From the IMG/VR virus record IMGVR_UViG_3300027797_000011: a stretch of DNA of 64,000 bases; one strand, given 5' to 3'. Source of the DNA: a virus. Lineage: Duplodnaviria > Heunggongvirae > Uroviricota > Caudoviricetes. The translations under genes and the position numbers were made by a program. The notes under the pieces are model-generated. The model had not been told where the DNA came from. It did not search any database and saw nothing but the letters and a program-made list of their open reading frames with translations. Positions 4,983 through 63,370 of this stretch are shown piece after piece. Positions within the stretch are counted from its first letter, which is position 1. Each line of letters opens with the position of its first letter.

Positions 4983-7247
4983 TTAAACAGTTTCTGCTTC
5001 GGTGGTGTTTTTAACTGATAGCACTTCTACGTAATTAATACACAGAGTATCTTTATCAACAGTTAATTCAACAACTCCGCCATCAACTAGTTTTCCAAAT
5101 AGGATTTCTTTACTCAATGGTTTCTTGATAAACTCATCAATAGTACGTTGTAGTGGACGAGCACCCATTTTACTGTCAAATCCTTTCTTGATTAACAGCT
5201 CAACAGCGTCTGCGTTAAGTTTAACATGAACGTTTCTATCTTTGAGTAGCACATTGAGCTCATCAATAAACTTCTTAACAATTTTAATCATTGTTGTTTG
5301 GTCTAACTTACCAAAGCGGATAATACCGTCCAATCGATTGCGGAATTCAGGAGCAAAGAATTTGTTAATAGCATCCTTAGGATCGCTGTCTCGTTCTAAA
5401 CTACCAAAACCTACGCTATTCTTTTCAGAATCTGCCGCACCTAAATTACTGGTCATAATAAGAATAGCATTGCGTCCGTCTGCTTTCTTACCATTACTAC
5501 CGGTAATAAATCCGTTGTCCATTAATTGAAGCATAATGGTTAACACATCGGGGTGCGCCTTTTCAACTTCGTCTAACAACAGAACACAATTAGGATGTTC
5601 TTGTAGTTTAGTAATCAATTGACCTGCATTGTCATCAAATCCAATATAGCCCGGAGGAGCACCAATAAACTTAGCAATAGAGTGTTTCTCTTGGAATTCG
5701 CTCATATCAAAGCGTACTAGTTCTACACTCATGCCTAAAGCAAGTTGTTTAGCAACTTCTGTTTTACCAACACCGGTTGGTCCTGCAAACAAGAAACTAC
5801 CTACTGGTTTATTAAGAGCTTTTAACCCTGCCTGTGCAATATAGATTTTATCAAGCAATGTTTCGATCGCTTTTTCCTGTCCATATACTTTACTACGCAG
5901 ATTTTTATCTAGGTCTTTAAGATTACGACTTTCTTTTGATGCAATTTGATCTAACGGCAACCCTGTAATCTTACTTACTTCAAATACAATTTCATCATGG
6001 TCTACTACACCATTATCTTCGTCTTTAACCTTGAAGCGGGCACAGGCACAATCAATTAGGTCGATTGCTTTATCTGGTAATTTCTTGTCGCTCATGTACT
6101 TAACGCTATACTTAACCGCATCCACTATTGCCTGCTTGTTAATCTTAACGCCATGGTATTTTTCGTAATATTTTTTAAGCCCCATAAGGATCTTAATAGC
6201 AGTTGCTTCGTCGGGCTCGCCCACCGTGACACGTTGGAACCGACGCATTAGGGCACGATCCTTTTCAAAGTGCTTACGGAATTCTTCCCACGTGGTACTA
6301 GCAATAACTTTAATACTTCCTTTACCCAATACAGGTTTAAGCATATTACTCATATCGTTACTGCCACCACCGACTGCCCCAGCACCGCTCATCATATGAG
6401 CTTCGTCAATAAACAAGATACACTTCTTTTTCTTTTCTAGCGCACTAATAACCATCTTTAGGCGTTCTTCAAAGTCTCCACGATACTTGCTTCCGGCAAG
6501 CATGGCACTAATATCCAAACTATAAACTGTATGATCTTTAATAAACTTAGGAACGTTGCCTTCTTCAATCCTACGTGCTAGACCTTCTGCAATAGCAGTC
6601 TTACCTACACCAGGATCTCCGATCATCATAACATTAGCCTTGGTTCTACGTGCAAGAACAAGAGTAATTTCTTCAATTTCTTTTTCACGGCCAATTACCG
6701 GATCTATTTGTTTAGCCTTAACTTTAGCAGTTAGACTTGTGCAATATTGCACAATGATTTTTTCTAAATGTCTGTTACTAACTTCTTCGGAATCTATATC
6801 ATCTGTATTAGATCCTTCCTTGTTTAGAAAATCAATAAACTTGTCTTTATCAATTTTAGCTTTACGCATAAAATACAATGCATGGCTTTTCTTTTCACTG
6901 AATATGCTAAGGAAACAATCAATAGGTTCAATCTTAGATCGTCCGCTAAACAATACTTGTGTAAATGCTCTATTCAACATTCTTTCCATAGAATGTGTTT
7001 TCTTTGGTTTATCATCAAATTCTGCATTAATAATTTCTTTTAGTTCTTTATTTAGAAAGATTTCGATATCTTTCTGTAGTAAACTAACTTCGGATCCGTA
7101 ACTTGTTAAAAGTTCTTTAAACTTTTCATCTTCTAATAGACTATGCAAAAAATGTTCTAGTGTAAGAAACTCGTGTTTATACTTTGTAGCTAATTCTACA
7201 GCTCGTTCAAAGATTACAGTTAAACTTTTATCTGGTTCTAACATCAA
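4983..7247 (-). CDS. clpA: ClpA-like AAA+ unfoldase with two AAA+ modules
   Basis: 754 aa. Clp N-domain at the N-terminus. Walker A motifs GDPGVGKT and GPTGVGKT. Length and architecture match ClpA rather than ClpB. Confidence 0.85.
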   Translation of the reverse strand: MMLEPDKSLTVIFERAVELATKYKHEFLTLEHFLHSLLEDEKFKELLTSYGSEVSLLQKDIEIFLNKELKEIINAEFDDKPKKTHSMERMLNRAFTQVLFSGRSKIEPIDCFLSIFSEKKSHALYFMRKAKIDKDKFIDFLNKEGSNTDDIDSEEVSNRHLEKIIVQYCTSLTAKVKAKQIDPVIGREKEIEEITLVLARRTKANVMMIGDPGVGKTAIAEGLARRIEEGNVPKFIKDHTVYSLDISAMLAGSKYRGDFEERLKMVISALEKKKKCILFIDEAHMMSGAGAVGGGSNDMSNMLKPVLGKGSIKVIASTTWEEFRKHFEKDRALMRRFQRVTVGEPDEATAIKILMGLKKYYEKYHGVKINKQAIVDAVKYSVKYMSDKKLPDKAIDLIDCACARFKVKDEDNGVVDHDEIVFEVSKITGLPLDQIASKESRNLKDLDKNLRSKVYGQEKAIETLLDKIYIAQAGLKALNKPVGSFLFAGPTGVGKTEVAKQLALGMSVELVRFDMSEFQEKHSIAKFIGAPPGYIGFDDNAGQLITKLQEHPNCVLLLDEVEKAHPDVLTIMLQLMDNGFITGSNGKKADGRNAILIMTSNLGAADSEKNSVGFGSLERDSDPKDAINKFFAPEFRNRLDGIIRFGKLDQTTMIKIVKKFIDELNVLLKDRNVHVKLNADAVELLIKKGFDSKMGARPLQRTIDEFIKKPLSKEILFGKLVDGGVVELTVDKDTLCINYVEVLSVKNTTEAETV

Positions 7248-7750
7248 TATTTCCTTTTAGTTTTAGTTGATTTTTTTACTGCCATTGCCCATTTTAGGGG
7301 ACTAATACGATCTTGATATACAATACCTTCAAGGTGATCAAATTCGTGTAGGAAACATCTAGCGGTGTACCCTTCTATTTCGGTTGTTAATGTTTCACCC
7401 GAACTATTTTGCCATTGCGCCTTAATAACTTTGGGGCGTTTTATATTAGCAAATATTCCTGGGAAACTCAAACAACCTTCACTATCATCAACCATTGAAT
7501 CACCGCCGGATTCGATGATTACCGGATTAAAAATTCCTACAGCATTATCTGGATGTTCTTTAGAACCCATAACAAACACTCTAGTTTTAATACCGACTTG
7601 ATTCGCGGCAAGACCAATAGCATCATTAGCTATCATAGTCTCGATCATTTCTTTTTCTAACTCTTTTGGATCTACAATAGGATTACTGAAATCAAAATCA
7701 GGCATCCTTTCTCGCAGAATTTCATTGGGGAATTTAACTACTTTATACAT
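7244..7750 (-). CDS. def: peptide deformylase
   Basis: Motifs GLAANQVG, EGCLSFPG and HEFDHLEG, the three canonical PDF motifs. 168 aa. Confidence 0.9.
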   Translation of the reverse strand: MYKVVKFPNEILRERMPDFDFSNPIVDPKELEKEMIETMIANDAIGLAANQVGIKTRVFVMGSKEHPDNAVGIFNPVIIESGGDSMVDDSEGCLSFPGIFANIKRPKVIKAQWQNSSGETLTTEIEGYTARCFLHEFDHLEGIVYQDRISPLKWAMAVKKSTKTKRKY

Positions 7751-7758
7751 ATTATTGT

Positions 7759-8625
7759 TTATGATTGATGAAACTTACTTAGTAACTCTACTTGACCGGG
7801 AGTTAATTGTGTGGGTATTTCAATATTAATAGGCATCAACATTCTGCCTCTGAATCTGTTGTCGTTAATATTAGGCATACCATATCCGGCCGCACTTAGT
7901 ATCTGTCCGTGCTGTGTTCCCGGATTAATTGTTACTTCCAATGTTCGACCGTCGATTGTATCAATTGATAATTTGCATCCCAGTATTGCCTCGACACACA
8001 TAACATTTATTTGTTTAACAAGATCGTCGCCTTGTCTTACAAATCCTCTATGTGCGGCAACTGACACAGTTAAATGAATGTCTCCTCTTGGAACATGAGG
8101 GTGTGAATCGTCACCTAGTCCTTGTACCTTTAACATGGTACCGTCTTGAATACCTGCTGGTATTTTAATATTGATAGTTTGGTTTCTTCCACTAGGTAGT
8201 GTTACTTCCGCTAACCAATCTCTACCATAGAACGCTTCTTCTAATGTAATATTTGTCTGTACATTAATTGATAAGTTTCTAGGCTGTTGCGGTCGTTGTC
8301 TAAAAAATGAAAATGGATCAACGTCTGGAGGCCGGTTAAAAAAATGTGCAAACATTTCTTCTGGATTTACATGCATACCGTTATATGCCTGGTGCGCTCT
8401 TTGATTTTCAAACCAGGGATCTGATCCTCGCGGATTTCGATCATATTCTGAACGTCTAGTAGGGTCGCTTAAGATACTGTATGCAATTTGCACATTTTTA
8501 AATATTTCGCCATCACCACCTTTATCGGGATGATGTTGCCCAGCCAACTTTCGATAGGCTTTTTTTATATCTTCGTATGAAGCGTCTTTTTGGACGCCTA
8601 GTGTTGAGTAATGGTCTGTTAGCAT
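7759..8625 (-). CDS. DnaJ/CbpA-type J-domain co-chaperone (no zinc-finger repeats)
   Basis: N-terminal J domain YSTLGV...[14 protein letters not shown] containing the HPD tripeptide. DnaJ C-terminal beta-domains follow. 288 aa. Confidence 0.85.
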
Positions 8626-19351: not shown

Positions 19352-19797
19352 TATAGATCTCCGTCTTTGCGATTTTCTGAATAAAAGGCATCAAACTCTC
19401 CACCCGGATATCGAGCTTTAAGTTTGTTAACATTTTCTGCAATAACATCATTGGGATCTAGATTTAAAGCACGGCATGCATTGATCCAATACCACATTAC
19501 ATCACCTAACTCTCTTTTCATATGAAAGAGATTTTCTTCAGTAAATGGTTTTCCTTGAAACAGTATCTTTTTAGGAATTTCAATAAATTCCCCTGCTTCG
19601 GCCGCAAGCCCGAGACATGCAGTAATTAACAACGGAACATTAGTATCGGGACCGTGTTCTCCTTCGCCAATATAATTCCCATCCACTTCATCCATACGGT
19701 TCATGAATGTGGTAAGGTCGTTGCTTTCTTTGCTGGTAACGGCTTCTACAAAATCTTTGTATTTGTTTAAATCAATTTGGTTGTGCATCGGATACAT
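19351..19797 (-). CDS. mazG: MazG-like nucleoside triphosphate pyrophosphohydrolase
   Basis: EAGE-type motif LAAEAGEF and ELGDVMWYW, characteristic of MazG. Confidence 0.8.
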   Translation of the reverse strand: MYPMHNQIDLNKYKDFVEAVTSKESNDLTTFMNRMDEVDGNYIGEGEHGPDTNVPLLITACLGLAAEAGEFIEIPKKILFQGKPFTEENLFHMKRELGDVMWYWINACRALNLDPNDVIAENVNKLKARYPGGEFDAFYSENRKDGDL

Positions 19798-20149
19798 TCA
19801 AGTTAAGGGCGCCAATTTTAACACGCATTGCATCGTCAGGCGCTTCATCGCTTACACACAGTATAGCATTATTATCGGCTAATCGTATATCTATAATTTC
19901 GCCGTTTTCGGCCTCGTACTTGTGTCCTCTACTCCAACGACCGTGTTCCATAAGAATCCATTGGCCCACTTCAACATCTGTTTGATCTGGTCCAATAGCA
20001 AACACTTTCCCCCAGCGAGGATGAATACCTGAACTTTTACCATCATCGCTCTGTAACAAAATACCGCTTTTTGTTTTATCCATGCCGAAATTCATATCAG
20101 AAATAAGTACCTTATTTCCTAACGGCCTGATAGTTCCTTTTACAGTCAT
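19772..20149 (-). CDS. GroES / T4 gp31-like co-chaperonin
   Basis: RPLGNKVLI start resembles GroES RPLHDRVIV. About 125 aa beta-barrel-type composition. Confidence 0.6.
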   Translation of the reverse strand: MTVKGTIRPLGNKVLISDMNFGMDKTKSGILLQSDDGKSSGIHPRWGKVFAIGPDQTDVEVGQWILMEHGRWSRGHKYEAENGEIIDIRLADNNAILCVSDEAPDDAMRVKIGALNLNVSDAQPN

Positions 20150-28027: not shown

Positions 28028-28852
28028 TCAAATAGCAAACAATTCTTTTACTTCTTCTCGAACATCATCGTACGGTACAATGTTAATTGCTTGATTTTGG
28101 AAGCTATCTAAAATAGTTTTAGTAGCAGTTAATATATCAAGTCCTTTACTTTGCAGATAGTAAAGTTTATCGAGATTTAAGTGATCTGTTGTGGAACCTA
28201 AGGAAGATACAACCTCGTTGCAATCGGTGTAAATGTCAGGCCTACTGCGGCATCTACCGTTTTCTCCTATTATAAAGTTTCCGCTTTCAATGTGTGCTTC
28301 ACTACCCTCTGACCCTTTATCGAGAACAGTCATCCCTTGAAATACTGTTTGACTGTCCTTTCCGGCAACTCCAAGAATAATCTGATTACTACTAGAATCA
28401 ATATGTTGATGAATAATCTTTGTAATAATTTCAGTGTCGCCGCCCACGGTATTCATCATAAGACCATACGAATTAAATTCAGCACCTTCTTCTAAATATA
28501 CTTGGATAATGTGTTTGTTGAATTTTCCGTTTTTAACAAACATTCCAAAATTGATTCCAGCGCCTTCCGCTACATGAATATCGTACAAAAATACCTGTTG
28601 TAGTTTATGATCTGCTTCGTTAATTACAATTAAATCCAACTTACCCTCGGGCTTAACTTGAATCTTAATATGTTTTGCTAACAATTCCTTTTCTGTAGGA
28701 TTTTGCCGCAGTACCATAGTATTGCTGTGACCTTCTGCAAGCTCAACGGTGCTAGCCTCAACAACTTTAAACTCTTTACCAAAATATTTTTCTGGGGAAT
28801 ATTGCCAATCTGGGTCGCCTTTTTCAGCTTTGAGAAAACTGTGAATAGCCAT
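28028..28852 (-). CDS. sufD: SufD/SufB-family Fe-S cluster assembly protein (shortened, 274 aa)
   Basis: C-terminal CRSRPDIYTDCNEVVSSLGSTTDHLNLDKLYYLQSKGLD aligns to the SufBD signature SRPELEIYADDVKCSHGATVGxLDxxQLFYLxSRGI. Confidence 0.65.
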   Translation of the reverse strand: MAIHSFLKAEKGDPDWQYSPEKYFGKEFKVVEASTVELAEGHSNTMVLRQNPTEKELLAKHIKIQVKPEGKLDLIVINEADHKLQQVFLYDIHVAEGAGINFGMFVKNGKFNKHIIQVYLEEGAEFNSYGLMMNTVGGDTEIITKIIHQHIDSSSNQIILGVAGKDSQTVFQGMTVLDKGSEGSEAHIESGNFIIGENGRCRSRPDIYTDCNEVVSSLGSTTDHLNLDKLYYLQSKGLDILTATKTILDSFQNQAINIVPYDDVREEVKELFAI

Positions 28853-29591
28853 CTTCTATTATCCTTTTATATAATTCTGGACCACCATGTTCTTTAATTT
28901 CCCCGTCTACAATAACATGCACATGGGTAGGAACAATCATGTCTAAAAATTGTTGATTATTTGTAATTACGGCCATTGATTTTTTACCATCTACATAGCT
29001 GTTTAAAACGGCGCCTAATATCTGTAGGTCTTCTTCCTCTAAATTAGAATCTATTTCATCTATAATGACAAAATCTGGATCTAACATCAACATCTGAAGA
29101 ATTTCGTTTTTCTTAAATTCTGATAGATTCATAAAATCGTAATCCATCATCGCATCCCCATGCCCTGATGGTAATTCGAGCATAGTACACAATACCTTAT
29201 AATCTTTTTCTAATTCGTTTTCGGAACGAGTATCTTTCTTGGCTTTCATCATAGCTTTAATTAGGTCTATGTTTCTAAGCCCGTAGATTTCTGGAGGATT
29301 TTGAAAAGTTGTGTGTATACCTAACTTTGCCCTATCCTCACAATCTAATCTAGTTATGTTTTTATGTTTAAAAGTAATCGATCCCTCAGTTTGAATTATT
29401 GAAGGATGCCCGGCAATTAAATGAGCAAGACTGCTTTTGCCAGAATGTTTAGGGCCCAAGATTGCATGAATCTCGCCCTGTTTGATGTTTATTGATATAT
29501 TTTTTAGTAGGTCTTTAGTATCAACTACCGCAGACACGTTTTTTATTGTTAGCATTGTTTTTATTATAAAGGTTTCAAACTCTCTTGTCAA
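28824..29591 (-). CDS. sufC: SufC-like ABC ATPase
   Basis: Walker A ILGPKHSGKSSL. The region NLSEFKKNEILQMLMLDPDFVIIDEIDSNLEEEDLQ matches SufC [36 protein letters not shown]. 255 aa. Confidence 0.75.
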   Translation of the reverse strand: MTREFETFIIKTMLTIKNVSAVVDTKDLLKNISINIKQGEIHAILGPKHSGKSSLAHLIAGHPSIIQTEGSITFKHKNITRLDCEDRAKLGIHTTFQNPPEIYGLRNIDLIKAMMKAKKDTRSENELEKDYKVLCTMLELPSGHGDAMMDYDFMNLSEFKKNEILQMLMLDPDFVIIDEIDSNLEEEDLQILGAVLNSYVDGKKSMAVITNNQQFLDMIVPTHVHVIVDGEIKEHGGPELYKRIIEDGYSQFSQS

Positions 29592-34799: not shown

Positions 34800-35610
34800 C
34801 GTCTCGTATCCGAGTATGGGTGTTCCTACTATTTAGCAGGATTACGGCAAGCCTACGTCCTCGGTCCTTTATAATCATAACCAAGCAACCACCAGATTTT
34901 TGTATCCAGCCTGTCTTACTAAGGCCTATACTAGTGTCTTTAACAACCAGGGAATTTGTTGTACGGAAATCAACAAAATACGATTTCTTTCGGCCGGGAA
35001 CTTGTATTCTTTTGCTGGTTTTTGTTGAAAAATTCCTAATAATGTCAAATGCGTAAGCATAGTCTATTAACTTAGCCAGATCAATAACTGTGCTAACATT
35101 CTCTTCAAACAGTCCTGTAGGATCGACAAATCTTGTATTGTGCATACCCAATGAGTCAGCAGTAGCATTCATCGCGGCCAAGGCCGATTCTTCTCCCCCA
35201 GGATAATTTTGAGCCAGGACTTTTGCGGCAACATTGTCACTGCTCATCAAGGACAACAATAATAAATCAGATCTAGTTATTTTTGTGCCATTGGGAAGTC
35301 TAGAATGAATTCCCTTAGTTTTGTTGATGGTTAAAACTTCATCTAGCTTTTGATGGGCATTTAAAACCACTACCACAGTCATTAGTTTAGTAATAGAAGC
35401 AATGCTTCTTATTTCTTGACTGTTTTTTTCTTTAAAAACTTCCCCAGTATCGAGATCTTTAACAATATAATTTGTTGCTAAGATTCCGTTCTGGGGACGT
35501 ATTGTTGATTTTTTGTTTTGTTTTGCAAACGCAGATGTGGATAACACCGCTACAATAAGTAGAGCATTAATTGCGTTTTTTAACAATTTGATCAATAAGT
35601 CCATATTCAA
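34747..35610 (-). CDS. D-alanyl-D-alanine carboxypeptidase (PBP5/6-type serine peptidase), secreted
   Basis: Signal peptide; SxxK (SIASITK), SxN (SSDN) and KTG (LSKTGW) motifs. Confidence 0.8.
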
Positions 35611-36157
35611 GGGCCTCCGAGGCGCTCATGAATTTATCCCTTTCCATGTCCATAATTAACTGATCATATGTCTTGCCCTTGCTGTTATGATCCACATAGA
35701 TCTGAGTGAGGGTCTTTTTCATCTTTACAATTTCAGCAACTTGAATTTCCATGTCAGTAGCCTGTCCACCGGCACCGCCACTAGGTTGGTGAATCATATG
35801 ACGAGCGTTTGGTAGCATATAGCGTTTACCAGGAGCACCAGAAGTGGCAAGTAAACTTCCCATGCTACAGGCTTGTCCCATAACATAGGTACATACATTG
35901 GGTTTAACAAACTGCATTACATCGTAGATTGCCATGCCAGATGTTACTACACCACCCGGGCTATTGATATAAAAGTGAATATCTTTGTCGCAATCGGCAC
36001 TCTCTAAATGCAAAAATTGTGCAACAATAGTAGCCGCACTCTCATCGCCTACTGGGCCATTTAAGAAGATAATACGCTCATTAAGTAACCGACTGTAAAT
36101 ATCAAAGGCACGTTCGCCTGTACTGGTCTTTTCAATGACCATTGGGATTAAATTCAT
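35567..36157 (-). CDS. clpP: ATP-dependent Clp protease proteolytic subunit ClpP
   Basis: Catalytic Ser in [10 protein letters not shown] and His in HQPSGG. 196 aa. Confidence 0.9.
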
Positions 36158-50717: not shown

Positions 50718-50749
50718 GATATTTTATCCTTGTTATCTGCTATTTAGTC

Positions 50750-50773
50750 AAAAAAAAGCCCACCGAAGTGGGC
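50750..50773 (-). terminator. rho-independent terminator of the tmRNA coding piece
   Basis: Minus sense: GCCCACUUCGGUGGGC followed by U8. Confidence 0.7.
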
Positions 50774-50779
50774 TTGGTG

Positions 50780-51110
50780 GTTTCTGTTACGAGGTATTTC
50801 CTACCCTAGGCGGCTGTTAGGCGGCCAATGCGAACTGTTCGTCGTTTGCGTTTACGTGTTGTGCTTCTACGACCGAGTTACCCCAATCCTACGGGTTCTG
50901 CTTTCCCGAGCTGTCCACTCATTTACTTGTTGCCCTGTCGAAACTATGCATCCCCATCAAAAGCATACTATTTTAGTCTGAGCGCATCACATGCGACTTT
51001 TTAACTCAACGACCTAGTATGCTTATGGTGGAGATGGGGGGATTCGCACCCCCGTCCAGAACACTTTTCTCTTTGCTTCATACAGCAATAACCTACAGTA
51101 TATATTTATT
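50780..51110 (-). ncRNA. ssrA: circularly permuted two-piece tmRNA (ssrA). Acceptor piece at about 51026-51110 ending CCA; intervening hairpin 50956-51025; coding piece 50955 down to about 50780. Tag ANDEQFALAA.
   Basis: Minus sense. The 3' end GGACGGGGGUGCGAAUCCCCCCAUCUCCACCA has a T-arm and acceptor. The 5' start GGGGAUGCAUAGUUUCGACAGGG lies 70 nt downstream of the CCA in transcription order. Acceptor GGGGAUG/CAUCUCC has a G3-U70 pair. Tag frame GCA AAC GAC GAA CAG UUC GCA UUG GCC GCC UAA. The spacer forms an AAGCAUACUA/UAGUAUGCUU stem. Confidence 0.8.
51075..51092. repeat. 18-bp direct repeat copy 1 (GCTTCATACAGCAATAAC)
   Basis: Identical copy at 51567..51584; extended imperfect similarity of about 34 bp. 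Confidence 0.8.
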
Positions 51111-51446
51111 CAGAGGAGTTGTCAATAACCTGTTACGCCAAAACTCTCGGGCCGCATCGCTTTGTTCATCGCTTGGAACTAGTACTCCGTCAATCTCACT
51201 TTGCACAATGTCGTACATCACCGTGGCAACACCCGTTCGTTTGTAACCGGAATATACTTCAATGTGATGCGGATACCATTTGTTATCTCTATCATACTTG
51301 AAAACTGCTGTGGAGATTTTTTTAGACCGAACTTTGTTTTTAATTACGGATACAGTGAATATAAGACTGCATTTATTTTTGGTGTAATCGTAAACAACTT
51401 GTTCTTGAGTTTTAATCAAAGAACAGACCAACTGATAGTCTGACAT
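51093..51446 (-). CDS. small GNAT-family acetyltransferase (117 aa)
   Basis: HIEVYSGYKRTGVATVMYD matches the GNAT acetyl-CoA-binding motif A (R/Q-x-x-G-x-G/A). Confidence 0.55.
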   Translation of the reverse strand: MSDYQLVCSLIKTQEQVVYDYTKNKCSLIFTVSVIKNKVRSKKISTAVFKYDRDNKWYPHHIEVYSGYKRTGVATVMYDIVQSEIDGVLVPSDEQSDAAREFWRNRLLTTPLNKYIL

Positions 51447-59563: not shown

Positions 59564-59836
59564 TTAACCAGTACGGTGAATGATGTGATATCCAAATTGT
59601 GTTTGTACAGGTCCGCTAATATGCCCGATTGGCAGGCTAAAGGTTGCATCTTCAAAAGGCTTAACCATCATACCTGTACTAAACTGTCCTAGATCGCCAC
59701 CGTTCTGTCCGCTTGGGCACTTACTAAAACTACGGGCCACTGCCGCAAAATCTTCCCCAGCAGAGATTTTCTCTTTTAAATCTACTGCCTCTGCCAATGT
59801 GGGCACTAAAATATGACTTGCTCTAACTTGACTCAT
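59564..59836 (-). CDS. parvulin-type peptidyl-prolyl isomerase (PpiC-like)
   Basis: ASHILV...GGDLGQF...GYHIIHR. Start trimmed to the internal Met to clear tRNA-Pro. Confidence 0.65.
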   Translation of the reverse strand: MSQVRASHILVPTLAEAVDLKEKISAGEDFAAVARSFSKCPSGQNGGDLGQFSTGMMVKPFEDATFSLPIGHISGPVQTQFGYHIIHRTG

Positions 59837-59855
59837 TTTATTTCCTTTATTAATA

Positions 59856-59932
59856 TGGTCGGTGTGACACGATTCGAACATGCGACCACTGCGTCCCAAA
59901 CGCAGAGCTCTACCAAGCTGAGCTACACACCG
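59856..59932 (-). tRNA. tRNA-Pro (anticodon GGG)
   Basis: Acceptor CGGUGUG/CACACCG; anticodon arm CUGCG-UUUGGGA-CGCAG; T-loop UUCGAAU; CCA encoded. Confidence 0.8.
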
Positions 59933-60695: not shown

Positions 60696-60785
60696 TGGCG
60701 GTGTGACTGAGACTCGAACTCAGAAGCCGGATTACGCCGACCGACAGATTAGCAATCTGCTCTAATACCATTATAGGACCACACC
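60696..60785 (-). tRNA. tRNA-Ser (anticodon GCU), type II
   Basis: Anticodon loop UUGCUAA; long variable arm CGGUCGGCGUAAUCCGGCU; T-arm CUGAG-UUCGAGU-CUCAG; CCA encoded. Confidence 0.8.
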
Positions 60786-63108: not shown

Positions 63109-63185
63109 TGGTACCCCGTGTCTGATTCGAACAGACAGCCAACTCCTTTTGAGAGAATCCGCACTACCAATTAGCGTAACGGGGC
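63109..63185 (-). tRNA. class-I tRNA with anticodon CAA (Leu anticodon, short variable loop), third paralog
   Basis: Same D-arm; anticodon arm AUUCU-CUCAAAA-GGAGU; variable UGGCU; T-arm GUCUG-UUCGAAU-CAGAC; acceptor GCCCCGU/ACGGGGU; CCA encoded. Confidence 0.65.
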
Positions 63186-63278: not shown

Positions 63279-63370
63279 TGGTACCAGCGGAGGGGATCGA
63301 ACCCTCTCAAGAACGCTAATCTGGCGCTAAAAGGCTTATAAGACCTCTCTGACTTCCAAGTCTCGCTGGC
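63279..63370 (-). tRNA. type II tRNA (long variable arm) with unusual anticodon loop CUUAUAA (apparent anticodon UAU); identity uncertain (Leu/Tyr/Ser-derived?)
   Basis: Acceptor GCCAGCG/CGCUGGU, A73, CCA. T-arm GAGGG-UUCGAUC-CCCUC. Variable-arm hairpin AGCGC..GCGUU. Non-standard D-arm. Confidence 0.5.

Follow-up and report, generated by a model that had tools for sequence, protein, structure and literature searches.

Does a phage that carries the two modules of a transfer-messenger RNA (tmRNA) in swapped order possess a working ribosome-rescue RNA of its own? The question is raised by a stretch of 64,000 nucleotides (nt) from a tailed phage (Caudoviricetes; IMG/VR record IMGVR_UViG_3300027797_000011), which in its full length is called the window below. 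Positions 50748-51125 of its minus strand make up the complete transcription unit, from promoter through terminator, of a permuted tmRNA gene. An earlier, sequence-only reading had placed such a gene at 50750-51110; the gene does lie there, but it is slightly longer, with a promoter reaching to 51125 and a transcript estimated to run from about 51091 to 50748 on the minus strand. From the evidence presented here, the phage very likely encodes a functional tmRNA of the circularly permuted (two-piece) type at this locus. As a type it is familiar: permuted phage tmRNAs have been catalogued, ARAGORN and Rfam detect them automatically, and the window provides a new example. The novelty implied by the sequence-only reading was overstated, as such phage genes are documented (PMC9004378, PMC11915505).

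The assignment to the tmRNA family is carried by two independent kinds of model, both of which had been suggested as checks along with the original reading. ARAGORN calls a single permuted tmRNA (tmRNA*) at 50726-51118 with the tag ANDEQFALAA, amid 18 tRNA genes that all lie on the same strand, and its permuted model spans the whole gene. In Rfam, the tmRNA_permuted model RF04321 is matched with 119.1 bits against a gathering threshold of 47 (E=1.2e-22, model positions 1-213 of 213) and the beta_tmRNA model RF01850 with 117.9 bits against a threshold of 84 (E=3e-35, full length), the acceptor strands being paired in the covariance model. The match to tmRNA is far beyond chance. The permuted order claimed in the sequence-only reading, in which the T-arm, the acceptor 3' strand and the CCA precede the 5' module, can be read directly and is also what the tmRNA* call expresses. 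Every part that had been described (T-arm, CAUCUCC, ACCA, a 70-nt spacer with a stem, GGGG start, tag frame and terminator) is present on the minus strand in its given place, and the tag peptide is the one called by ARAGORN. The parts of the gene, in the order of transcription, are the following:

51097-51125, minus strand: predicted sigma-70-type promoter, with -35 TTGACA at 51125-51120, a 17-nt spacer and -10 TATACT at 51102-51097
51026-51091, minus strand: acceptor piece, about 66 nt, its 5' end estimated from the promoter
51086-51082 (GCUGU) and 51063-51057 (UGUUCUG), minus strand: P2 5' strands, within the acceptor piece
51053-51037, minus strand: T-arm GGGGG-UGCGAAU-CCCCC, read in the sequence and supported by covariation
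51042-51048, minus strand: T-loop UGCGAAU, in which the G at 51047 is the equivalent of pseudouridine 55 (Psi55) of tRNA and of U342 of E. coli tmRNA
51036-51030, minus strand: acceptor 3' strand CAUCUCC, followed by the discriminator A73 at 51029 and the encoded CCA at 51028-51026
50956-51025, minus strand: intervening spacer, exactly 70 nt, predicted to be excised
51024-51015 and 50970-50961, minus strand: arms AAGCAUACUA and UAGUAUGCUU of the spacer stem of 10 base pairs (bp), paired in the RNAfold prediction
50748-50955, minus strand: coding piece, about 208 nt, beginning with GGGGAUGCAUAGUUUCGACAGGG at 50955
50955-50949, minus strand: acceptor 5' strand GGGGAUG, within the coding piece
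50945, minus strand: the A of the D-loop analogue CAUAGUUUCGAC, within the coding piece
50937-50931 (CAGGGCA) and 50914-50910 (ACAGC), minus strand: P2 3' strands, within the coding piece
50908-50892 and 50888-50871, minus strand: two tandem hairpins, within the coding piece
50817-50849, minus strand: tag reading frame GCA AAC GAC GAA CAG UUC GCA UUG GCC GCC UAA
50826-50809, minus strand: tag hairpin, within the coding piece
50794-50782, minus strand: conserved CCUCGUAACAGAA motif, within the coding piece
50748-50775, minus strand: intrinsic terminator AAGCCCAC-UUCG-GUGGGCUU, with an 8-bp stem at 50775-50756, then U8

Between the promoter and the T-arm, the sequence of the acceptor piece runs GCUGUAUGAAG...UGUUCUGGAC. 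The predicted promoter is near-consensus for sigma-70, agreeing by consensus match at 11 of 12 positions, and TTGAC-type or TATAAT-type promoters are found at equal distance in many relatives of the gene. The terminator also appears in RF01850, as the terminal hairpin of that model. The tag frame opens with the resume codon GCA at 50849-50847, encodes ANDEQFALAA and closes with the stop codon UAA at 50819-50817. Directly before the resume codon stands UAAAC, at the spacing that UAGUC has from the resume codon in E. coli. Upstream, an open reading frame (ORF) of 117 amino acids (aa) without family match (51093-51446, minus strand) extends across the promoter, its stop codon at 51095-51093 lying just past the -10 hexamer.

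When the two predicted pieces are folded together, seven intermolecular acceptor pairs are formed, G1-C72 to G7-C66, including G3·U70, and the T-arm and the spacer stem are formed as well. The pairing of GGGGAUG with CAUCUCC over 7 bp, with its G3·U70, was part of the sequence-only reading and is recovered by the co-fold and by RNAalifold alike. The spacer by itself folds with -20.2 kcal/mol in RNAfold and contains an inner hairpin CGCAU/AUGCG; its 10-bp stem prolongs the acceptor stem via an ACCA/UGAU segment. Neither an ORF nor an internal promoter is found in the 70-nt spacer of the window.

Is this structure maintained by selection? The relatives used for the comparison were collected by the exact 5' motif, by a T-arm and acceptor pattern with the T-loop of the window, and by the same pattern with the canonical T-loop. 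Thirty-one full-length relatives from viral contigs were aligned to the window gene by BLAST, and the MAFFT alignment was made without structural input. For the tested structure, P2, the T-arm and the acceptor were taken from the independent Rfam model, and the spacer stem, hairpins and pseudoknot from inspection. In this set, 92.4% of the cells are standard pairs, compared with 44-52% in controls slid by 1-3 columns, and changes on both sides are seen at 31 of the 65 tested pairs. The covariation score amounts to 0.254 (at most 0.067 in the slid controls), and none of 500 shuffles reaches the observed values.

The individual helices follow the same pattern. While G3·U70 is invariant in all 31 distinct sequences, acceptor pair 5:68 occurs as C-G (19 sequences), U-A (8) and G-C (4). 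The T-stem is 100% paired and its pair 2 shows four pair types. For P2, the outer pair 7:335 is split between C-G (16) and U-A (15), P2a pair 30:314 is G-C in 25 and A-U in 6 sequences, and pair 17:328 also covaries. In the spacer stem, all 10 pairs vary on both sides. From the same alignment, RNAalifold recovers P2, the T-arm, the acceptor stem and the spacer stem unaided, with changes on both sides at 25 pairs, and its ACCA/UGAU extension between the acceptor and spacer stems consists of A63:U288, C65:G286 and A66:U285. The U(-1) at 50956, which precedes G1, is likewise invariant among the relatives.

These data bear directly on the suspicion that the locus is a non-functional relic, be it a captured bacterial ssrA gene, an attachment-site fragment left by integration into ssrA, or contamination of the assembly. 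Phages that integrate into ssrA do commonly carry tmRNA fragments (PMC9004378, PMC4383910), and the 3' pseudoknot stem of the window copy is degenerate when compared to its relatives. However, both modules are complete and lie between a promoter and a terminator of their own, every helix is preserved through compensatory change in more than 30 diverged relatives on viral contigs, and no integrase was seen among the scanned window ORFs. The neighbours are phage genes on the same strand, and many independent metagenome contigs again encode proteins of this phage. A relic is hardly credible under these circumstances.

The tag tells a similar story at the level of the peptide. Residues 1-3 (AND) and 6-10 (F/Y-ALAA) are constant across 17 distinct coding sequences, with synonymous variation at 7 of those codons, and residues 4-5 vary freely. 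As judged from these sequences, the pattern shows that the tag is under protein-level constraint and that the frame behaves as a translated sequence. Because compensatory change occurs in every helix and the tag is constrained as protein, the tmRNA gene is under selection and, on this comparative evidence, very probably functional.

The most unusual part of the gene is found in the elbow of the tRNA-like domain. The T-loop is UGCGAAU, against UUCGAUU in the model consensus, and the D-loop analogue has UAG in place of the consensus UGG, the deviating positions being 51047 and 50945. To count the combinations, genes were searched by the T-arm alone and the D-loop analogue was read in fixed register. 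Among the genes with G at position 55, which amount to 164 unique sequences, the G18-equivalent is an A in 150 and a G in 10. Among those with U55, none of 80 has the A and 76 have GG. The association has a Fisher p of 2.5e-51, uncorrected for phylogeny. The G55 variant of the T-loop was met in tmRNA genes of viruses (more than 119) and of bacteria (more than 120), and the G55/A18 state is distributed over one-piece genes of the Candidate Phyla Radiation (CPR) and Elusimicrobia, alpha-type permuted genes of Rhodobacterales, and phage genes. Within the clade of the window, the 32 sequences fall without exception into G55/A18 or U55/G18, and by a rough neighbour-joining tree the state has switched at least 6 times. 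The 18:55 covariation supports a real elbow contact and hence a tRNA-like domain that would be folded. With a G at position 55, the RNA cannot carry Psi55. In the literature searched, which was not exhaustive, no description of this switch in tmRNA was found. It provides a clean natural test of the contact between T-loop and D-loop in the tRNA-like domain.

Could such an RNA serve merely as a decoy, whose tRNA-like domain titrates SmpB or the alanyl-tRNA synthetase of the host and so inhibits host trans-translation? This has been proposed for the RNA of mycobacteriophage DS6A (PMC4131195, PMC11915505); the window has no detected SmpB of its own, and its unusual T-loop could alter interactions. 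Yet a decoy needs no coding piece, no constraint on a tag and no downstream structure, while here conservation extends to the coding piece, whose resume context is intact, the tag changes synonymously under amino-acid-level constraint, and a conserved downstream structure is present. A decoy function is disfavoured for these reasons and considered very unlikely.

For the preferred reading, a functional two-piece tmRNA, the following course of events can be proposed. Host RNA polymerase would make one precursor from the sigma-70-type promoter to the intrinsic terminator, as suggested by the consensus matches. In this precursor, the tRNA-like acceptor stem would be built from the 3' portion of the first module and the 5' portion of the second and prolonged by the spacer stem, an arrangement backed by covariation. 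RNase P may then cut before G1 (50955), and host 3'-processing enzymes may trim the other end to the encoded CCA at 51026, so that the 70-nt spacer is discarded. Removal of the spacer is a logical necessity, as the transcript does not end with the CCA and an internal CCA cannot be aminoacylated. The conserved spacer stem and the invariant U(-1) are consistent with cleavage into two base-paired RNAs. The resulting acceptor piece of about 66 nt and coding piece of about 208 nt would be held together by the 7-bp acceptor stem and by P2, a pairing supported by the comparison of relatives. Host alanyl-tRNA synthetase would presumably charge the RNA via G3·U70 and A73, and host SmpB and EF-Tu would carry it to ribosomes stalled on broken mRNAs. 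Translation would resume at the GCA, append ANDEQFALAA and stop at the UAA; the frame and the constraint on the peptide are supported by comparison, while tagging itself, like transcription, processing, charging and delivery, is deduced from established tmRNA biology. The ALAA end may finally target the product to Clp proteases, perhaps, more speculatively, to the phage's own ClpA and ClpP. The likely benefit would be that ribosomes are kept available and truncated proteins cleared during infection, alongside the 18 tRNAs and the chaperone, deformylase and protease genes of the phage.

Several observations weigh against this reading. The co-folding that had been suggested together with the sequence-only reading gives the acceptor stem but not P2, which is absent from the single-sequence minimum-free-energy (MFE) co-fold; the P2 assignment rests on the covariance model and on covariation. 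The 3' pseudoknot stem, which covaries in the relatives, is degenerate in the window copy, where a deletion is found along with a separate terminator. The T-loop is without the near-universal U55. No SmpB domain was detected by Pfam and PHROGs scans in window ORFs of at least 100 aa, the window being part of a genome, and function would thus depend on host SmpB accepting this RNA. The link to a phage ClpAP, lastly, consists of co-occurrence only. On the supporting side stand the phage context (T4-like clamp loader, baseplate protein, lysis genes and tRNA cluster), the precedent of two-piece tmRNAs in phages (PMC9004378) and the functional two-piece tmRNA of Caulobacter.

In the MFE co-fold, UGUUCUG (the P2a 5' strand, 51057-51063) pairs instead with the CAGAA motif at 50782-50788. 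As a functional pairing this was rejected and is regarded as a thermodynamic artefact, because the canonical partner covaries on both sides (30:314, GC/AU) and also because alpha-like genes keep the motif though their P2a strand is non-complementary to it. As a separate observation, UGUUCUG and CAGAA(A/U) in the 3' pseudoknot loop are compatible across the clade, without covariation support; this may be chance or an alternative conformer.

How does the gene compare with known systems? Permuted tmRNA is established in three bacterial lineages, and for Caulobacter a functional two-piece tmRNA was demonstrated (Keiler et al. 2000, cited in PMC9004378; modelled in PMC1168896). In phages, Buchholz et al. 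counted tmRNA genes in 402 of 18,146 genomes, comprising 133 unique forms of which 53 are two-piece, and described one in the phage Melnitz (PMC9004378). The tmRNA database of 2025, which introduced RF04321, contains 79 phage sequences (PMC11915505).

A close known counterpart is the betaproteobacterial two-piece tmRNA (RF01850; Sharkady & Williams 2004, cited in PMC9004378). Both share the permuted order of acceptor module, spacer and coding module, the P2 formed between the pieces, a hairpin after P2 in place of a PK1-type pseudoknot, a tag of the ANDExFAxAA type (the RF01850 consensus translates to ANDEHFAMAA), and a 3' hairpin with a CCUxGxxACxxAA loop that is followed by the terminator hairpin. 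In contrast, the window gene is embedded in phage genes and has its relatives on viral contigs rather than on a betaproteobacterial chromosome. Its middle P2 helices and 3' hairpin are flagged as non-canonical in the covariance-model alignment; the relatives form this hairpin with covariation, and the window copy has its deletion there. Further differences are the T-loop UGCGAAU combined with a UAG D-loop analogue (UUCGAUU with UGG in the model), the 70-nt spacer with about 41 extra nucleotides, and the two tandem hairpins after P2.

A beta resemblance of the tag had been noted in the sequence-only reading. For the gene, RF01850 gives 118 bits against its threshold of 84, but the resemblance is marginal and no firm conclusion on the host can be drawn from it. 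The phage relatives reach 85-114 bits on the same model, while bacterial alpha-type genes have 217-279 bits on their own model RF01849; a further group of phage genes is weakly alpha-like (70-74 bits). By these scores the window gene appears only marginally beta-like. The type of a phage tmRNA is moreover unreliable for host taxonomy, since Stenotrophomonas phages also carry beta-like permuted genes.

One of these is the Menderavirus ssrA of vB_SmaM_Bhz51 (OR797040.1, annotated as 'transfer-messenger RNA, SsrA'). It is likewise phage-borne, called as tmRNA* by ARAGORN and located amid tRNA genes, it scores 118.5 bits on RF04321 and 92 bits on RF01850, and a complementary stem flanks its spacer. 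However, it is 77% identical over 79 nt only (the acceptor module), its tag is VAANDDSYTVRIAA, its T-loop is the canonical UUCGAUU with GG, and its carrier is a phage of about 160 kilobases (kb) that infects a gammaproteobacterium. The marine OM43 phage Melnitz and related pelagimyophages (PMC9004378) also possess a myovirus permuted tmRNA downstream of an early-type promoter, and for the Melnitz ssrA the proposed role is to keep the hijacked translation machinery running or to mark proteins that are to be recycled (PMC9004378). The Melnitz gene is alpha-like and accompanied by a glutamine riboswitch, whereas the window gene is beta-like and Rfam gives no riboswitch match in the window. In Caulobacter crescentus (PMC1168896), a single precursor with an excised loop similarly yields a coding piece of 213 nt and an acceptor piece of 83 nt that are joined by base pairing, compared to about 208 and about 66 nt here. 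That gene differs in being chromosomal, of the alpha lineage and equipped with small pseudoknots, and its function was demonstrated where that of the window gene is deduced. The one-piece tmRNAs of Bxz1-group mycobacteriophages and Bacillus phage G (PMC4131195) are also tmRNA-family genes of large phages with many tRNAs, but they have the standard, non-permuted order; the DS6A RNA consists of the tRNA-like domain only, without a coding part (PMC4131195).

Which phage is the source? The window encodes a T4-type clamp loader, a baseplate or virion protein of 1,943 aa and an endonuclease, together with holin-like and Rz1-like lysis proteins, a GH19 lysin, PhoH and MazG. By the clamp loader, the nearest cultured relatives are the PA5oct-like Pseudomonas jumbo phages of about 287 kb (53.6% amino-acid identity), followed by Atu_ph07, RsoM2USA, XacN1 and similar giants. 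In a DNA search of about 50,700 phage records, the tmRNA gene matched only the acceptor module of Stenotrophomonas phages, and the same search with its 20-kb neighbourhood returned nothing but a tRNA. The same clamp-loader protein is present on at least 24 metagenome contigs (the longest among the matches listed being 71.7 kb), and at least 581 viral contigs, including several of 200-350 kb, carry ClpA orthologues of 69-83% identity. Because no cultured phage is close by DNA, the clamp loader has its kin among giant phages and the proteins recur on metagenome and viral contigs, the source is an uncultivated environmental jumbo myovirus that is distantly related to PA5oct.

A bacterial donor of the gene, or a host, was looked for among genome contigs with the unusual T-arm. 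One-piece CPR and Elusimicrobia genes and alpha-type Rhodobacterales genes were retrieved, with no beta-type bacterial gene among the matches listed. In viral contigs matched by the T-arm and acceptor pattern, the permuted order is seen in each of the 93 unique G55 genes and in 61 of the 80 U55 genes; the pattern is biased and excludes E. coli-type T-loops, and these counts give a hint that the permuted form may be favoured in viruses. One permuted tmRNA was encountered in a metagenome-assembled genome assigned to 'Verrucomicrobiales' (L195, NYWG01000047.1). It is nearly the same as that of the IMG/VR viral contig L005, both being weakly alpha-like with tags GEGNFALAA and DNHIDYRMAA, and the contig is probably viral DNA that was binned with a bacterium.

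The window also encodes a set of protein quality-control genes, of which those for ClpA and ClpP are possibly linked to the tmRNA:

4983-7247, minus strand: ClpA orthologue, 754 aa, aligned end to end with E. coli ClpA (E=1.4e-198), without a ClpB-type middle (M) domain
7244-7750, minus strand: peptide deformylase, immediately upstream of the ClpA gene in an operon-like run
7759-8625, minus strand: DnaJ, in the same run
19772-20149, minus strand: GroES-like Cpn10
35567-36157, minus strand: ClpP orthologue, 196 aa, PF00574 E=1.1e-76, E. coli ClpP E=5e-71 over the full length
59564-59899, minus strand: parvulin-type prolyl isomerase

In the ClpA orthologue, a VGF is aligned to the IGL of the ClpP-docking loop, and in the ClpP orthologue the catalytic Ser, His and Asp are aligned to those of E. 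coli ClpP. Scans with Pfam and PHROGs revealed neither ClpS nor SspB in window ORFs of at least 100 aa. Fourteen related loci have a divergent ClpP-family gene on the tmRNA strand, at a distance of 1.3-3 kb downstream; two of these loci are given as examples:

3015-3572 of L300, minus strand: divergent ClpP-family gene
1820-2377 of L329, plus strand: divergent ClpP-family gene, with 12 further loci alike

Downstream of the tmRNA and on its strand, such relatives have two small ORFs, a gene for a cell-wall hydrolase (PF07486) and that of the divergent ClpP-family protease (PF00574, E about 1e-29). The two ORFs that flank the tmRNA in the window have no homologue in the other tmRNA loci, so that only a looser synteny is seen. 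In addition, one viral contig of 327 kb carries both a tmRNA and a ClpA orthologue.

From these genes another role could be argued, namely that the tmRNA is functional but serves mainly a phage-controlled tagging and degradation via the phage's own ClpA-ClpP, which would recycle amino acids or remodel the proteome, the targets being, for instance, the products of host mRNAs cut during takeover. A similar idea was raised for Melnitz (PMC9004378). The apparently intact ClpA and ClpP orthologues in the same 64-kb window, the ClpP-family gene near the tmRNA in the 14 loci and the joint occurrence on the 327-kb contig all agree with it. However, co-occurrence is all they amount to, many of the 14 loci stem from closely related phages, and Clp genes occur in jumbo phages whether or not a tmRNA is present (PMC7824862). 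A cultured jumbo phage with both is on record (PMC11242549). The ClpA and ClpP genes of the window are moreover reported to lie 30-45 kb from the tmRNA, the adaptors ClpS and SspB were not detected among the scanned ORFs, and phage ClpP-family proteins often act in capsid maturation. As the main role, degradation by the phage's own protease is thus unlikely, while a functional link between tmRNA and Clp is plausible on the basis of the co-occurrence.

For the functional two-piece tmRNA itself, the find changes little, as this kind of gene is catalogued; the 18:55 covariation and the proximity to Clp genes are more valuable. It does add a well-supported case of a phage equipped with a ribosome-rescue RNA of its own, here in company with 18 tRNAs, peptide deformylase, DnaJ, a GroES-like protein, ClpA and ClpP, and it reinforces the picture of jumbo phages as carriers of a toolkit for translation and protein quality control. 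That phage tmRNAs repeatedly lie close to Clp-family genes offers a testable hypothesis for the purpose of these RNAs. A bolder, and as a whole rather doubtful, proposal would be that the permuted phage tmRNAs form one or more phage-propagated lineages instead of recent copies of host ssrA, that they are marginally beta- or alpha-like and have repeatedly switched G18·Psi55 to a covarying A·G, and that in this jumbo family they act with the phage ClpA-ClpP as a self-contained module for tagging and degradation.

Some minor observations concern the remaining genes of the window and the spacers of the relatives. The 18 tRNA genes called by ARAGORN lie at 40680-63889 on the minus strand and 15 of them are confirmed by Rfam; the other three are Ser(gct) at 60696-60785, Leu(caa) at 63109-63185 and an unusually long 'Ile(tat)' of 92 nt at 63279-63370. 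At 28028-29591, also on the minus strand, a SufBD-core protein adjoins a SufC-like ABC ATPase, which suggests phage genes for iron-sulfur cluster assembly. Among the relatives of the tmRNA, L329, L079/L032 and L044 have long spacers of 144-175 nt between CCA and GGGG, each with an ORF of 41-52 aa. If these ORFs are real, a protein gene would reside inside the excised segment of a permuted tmRNA. Some of them are preceded by a Shine-Dalgarno-like sequence, and the stop codon of the ORF in L329 is the conserved UGA just before G1.

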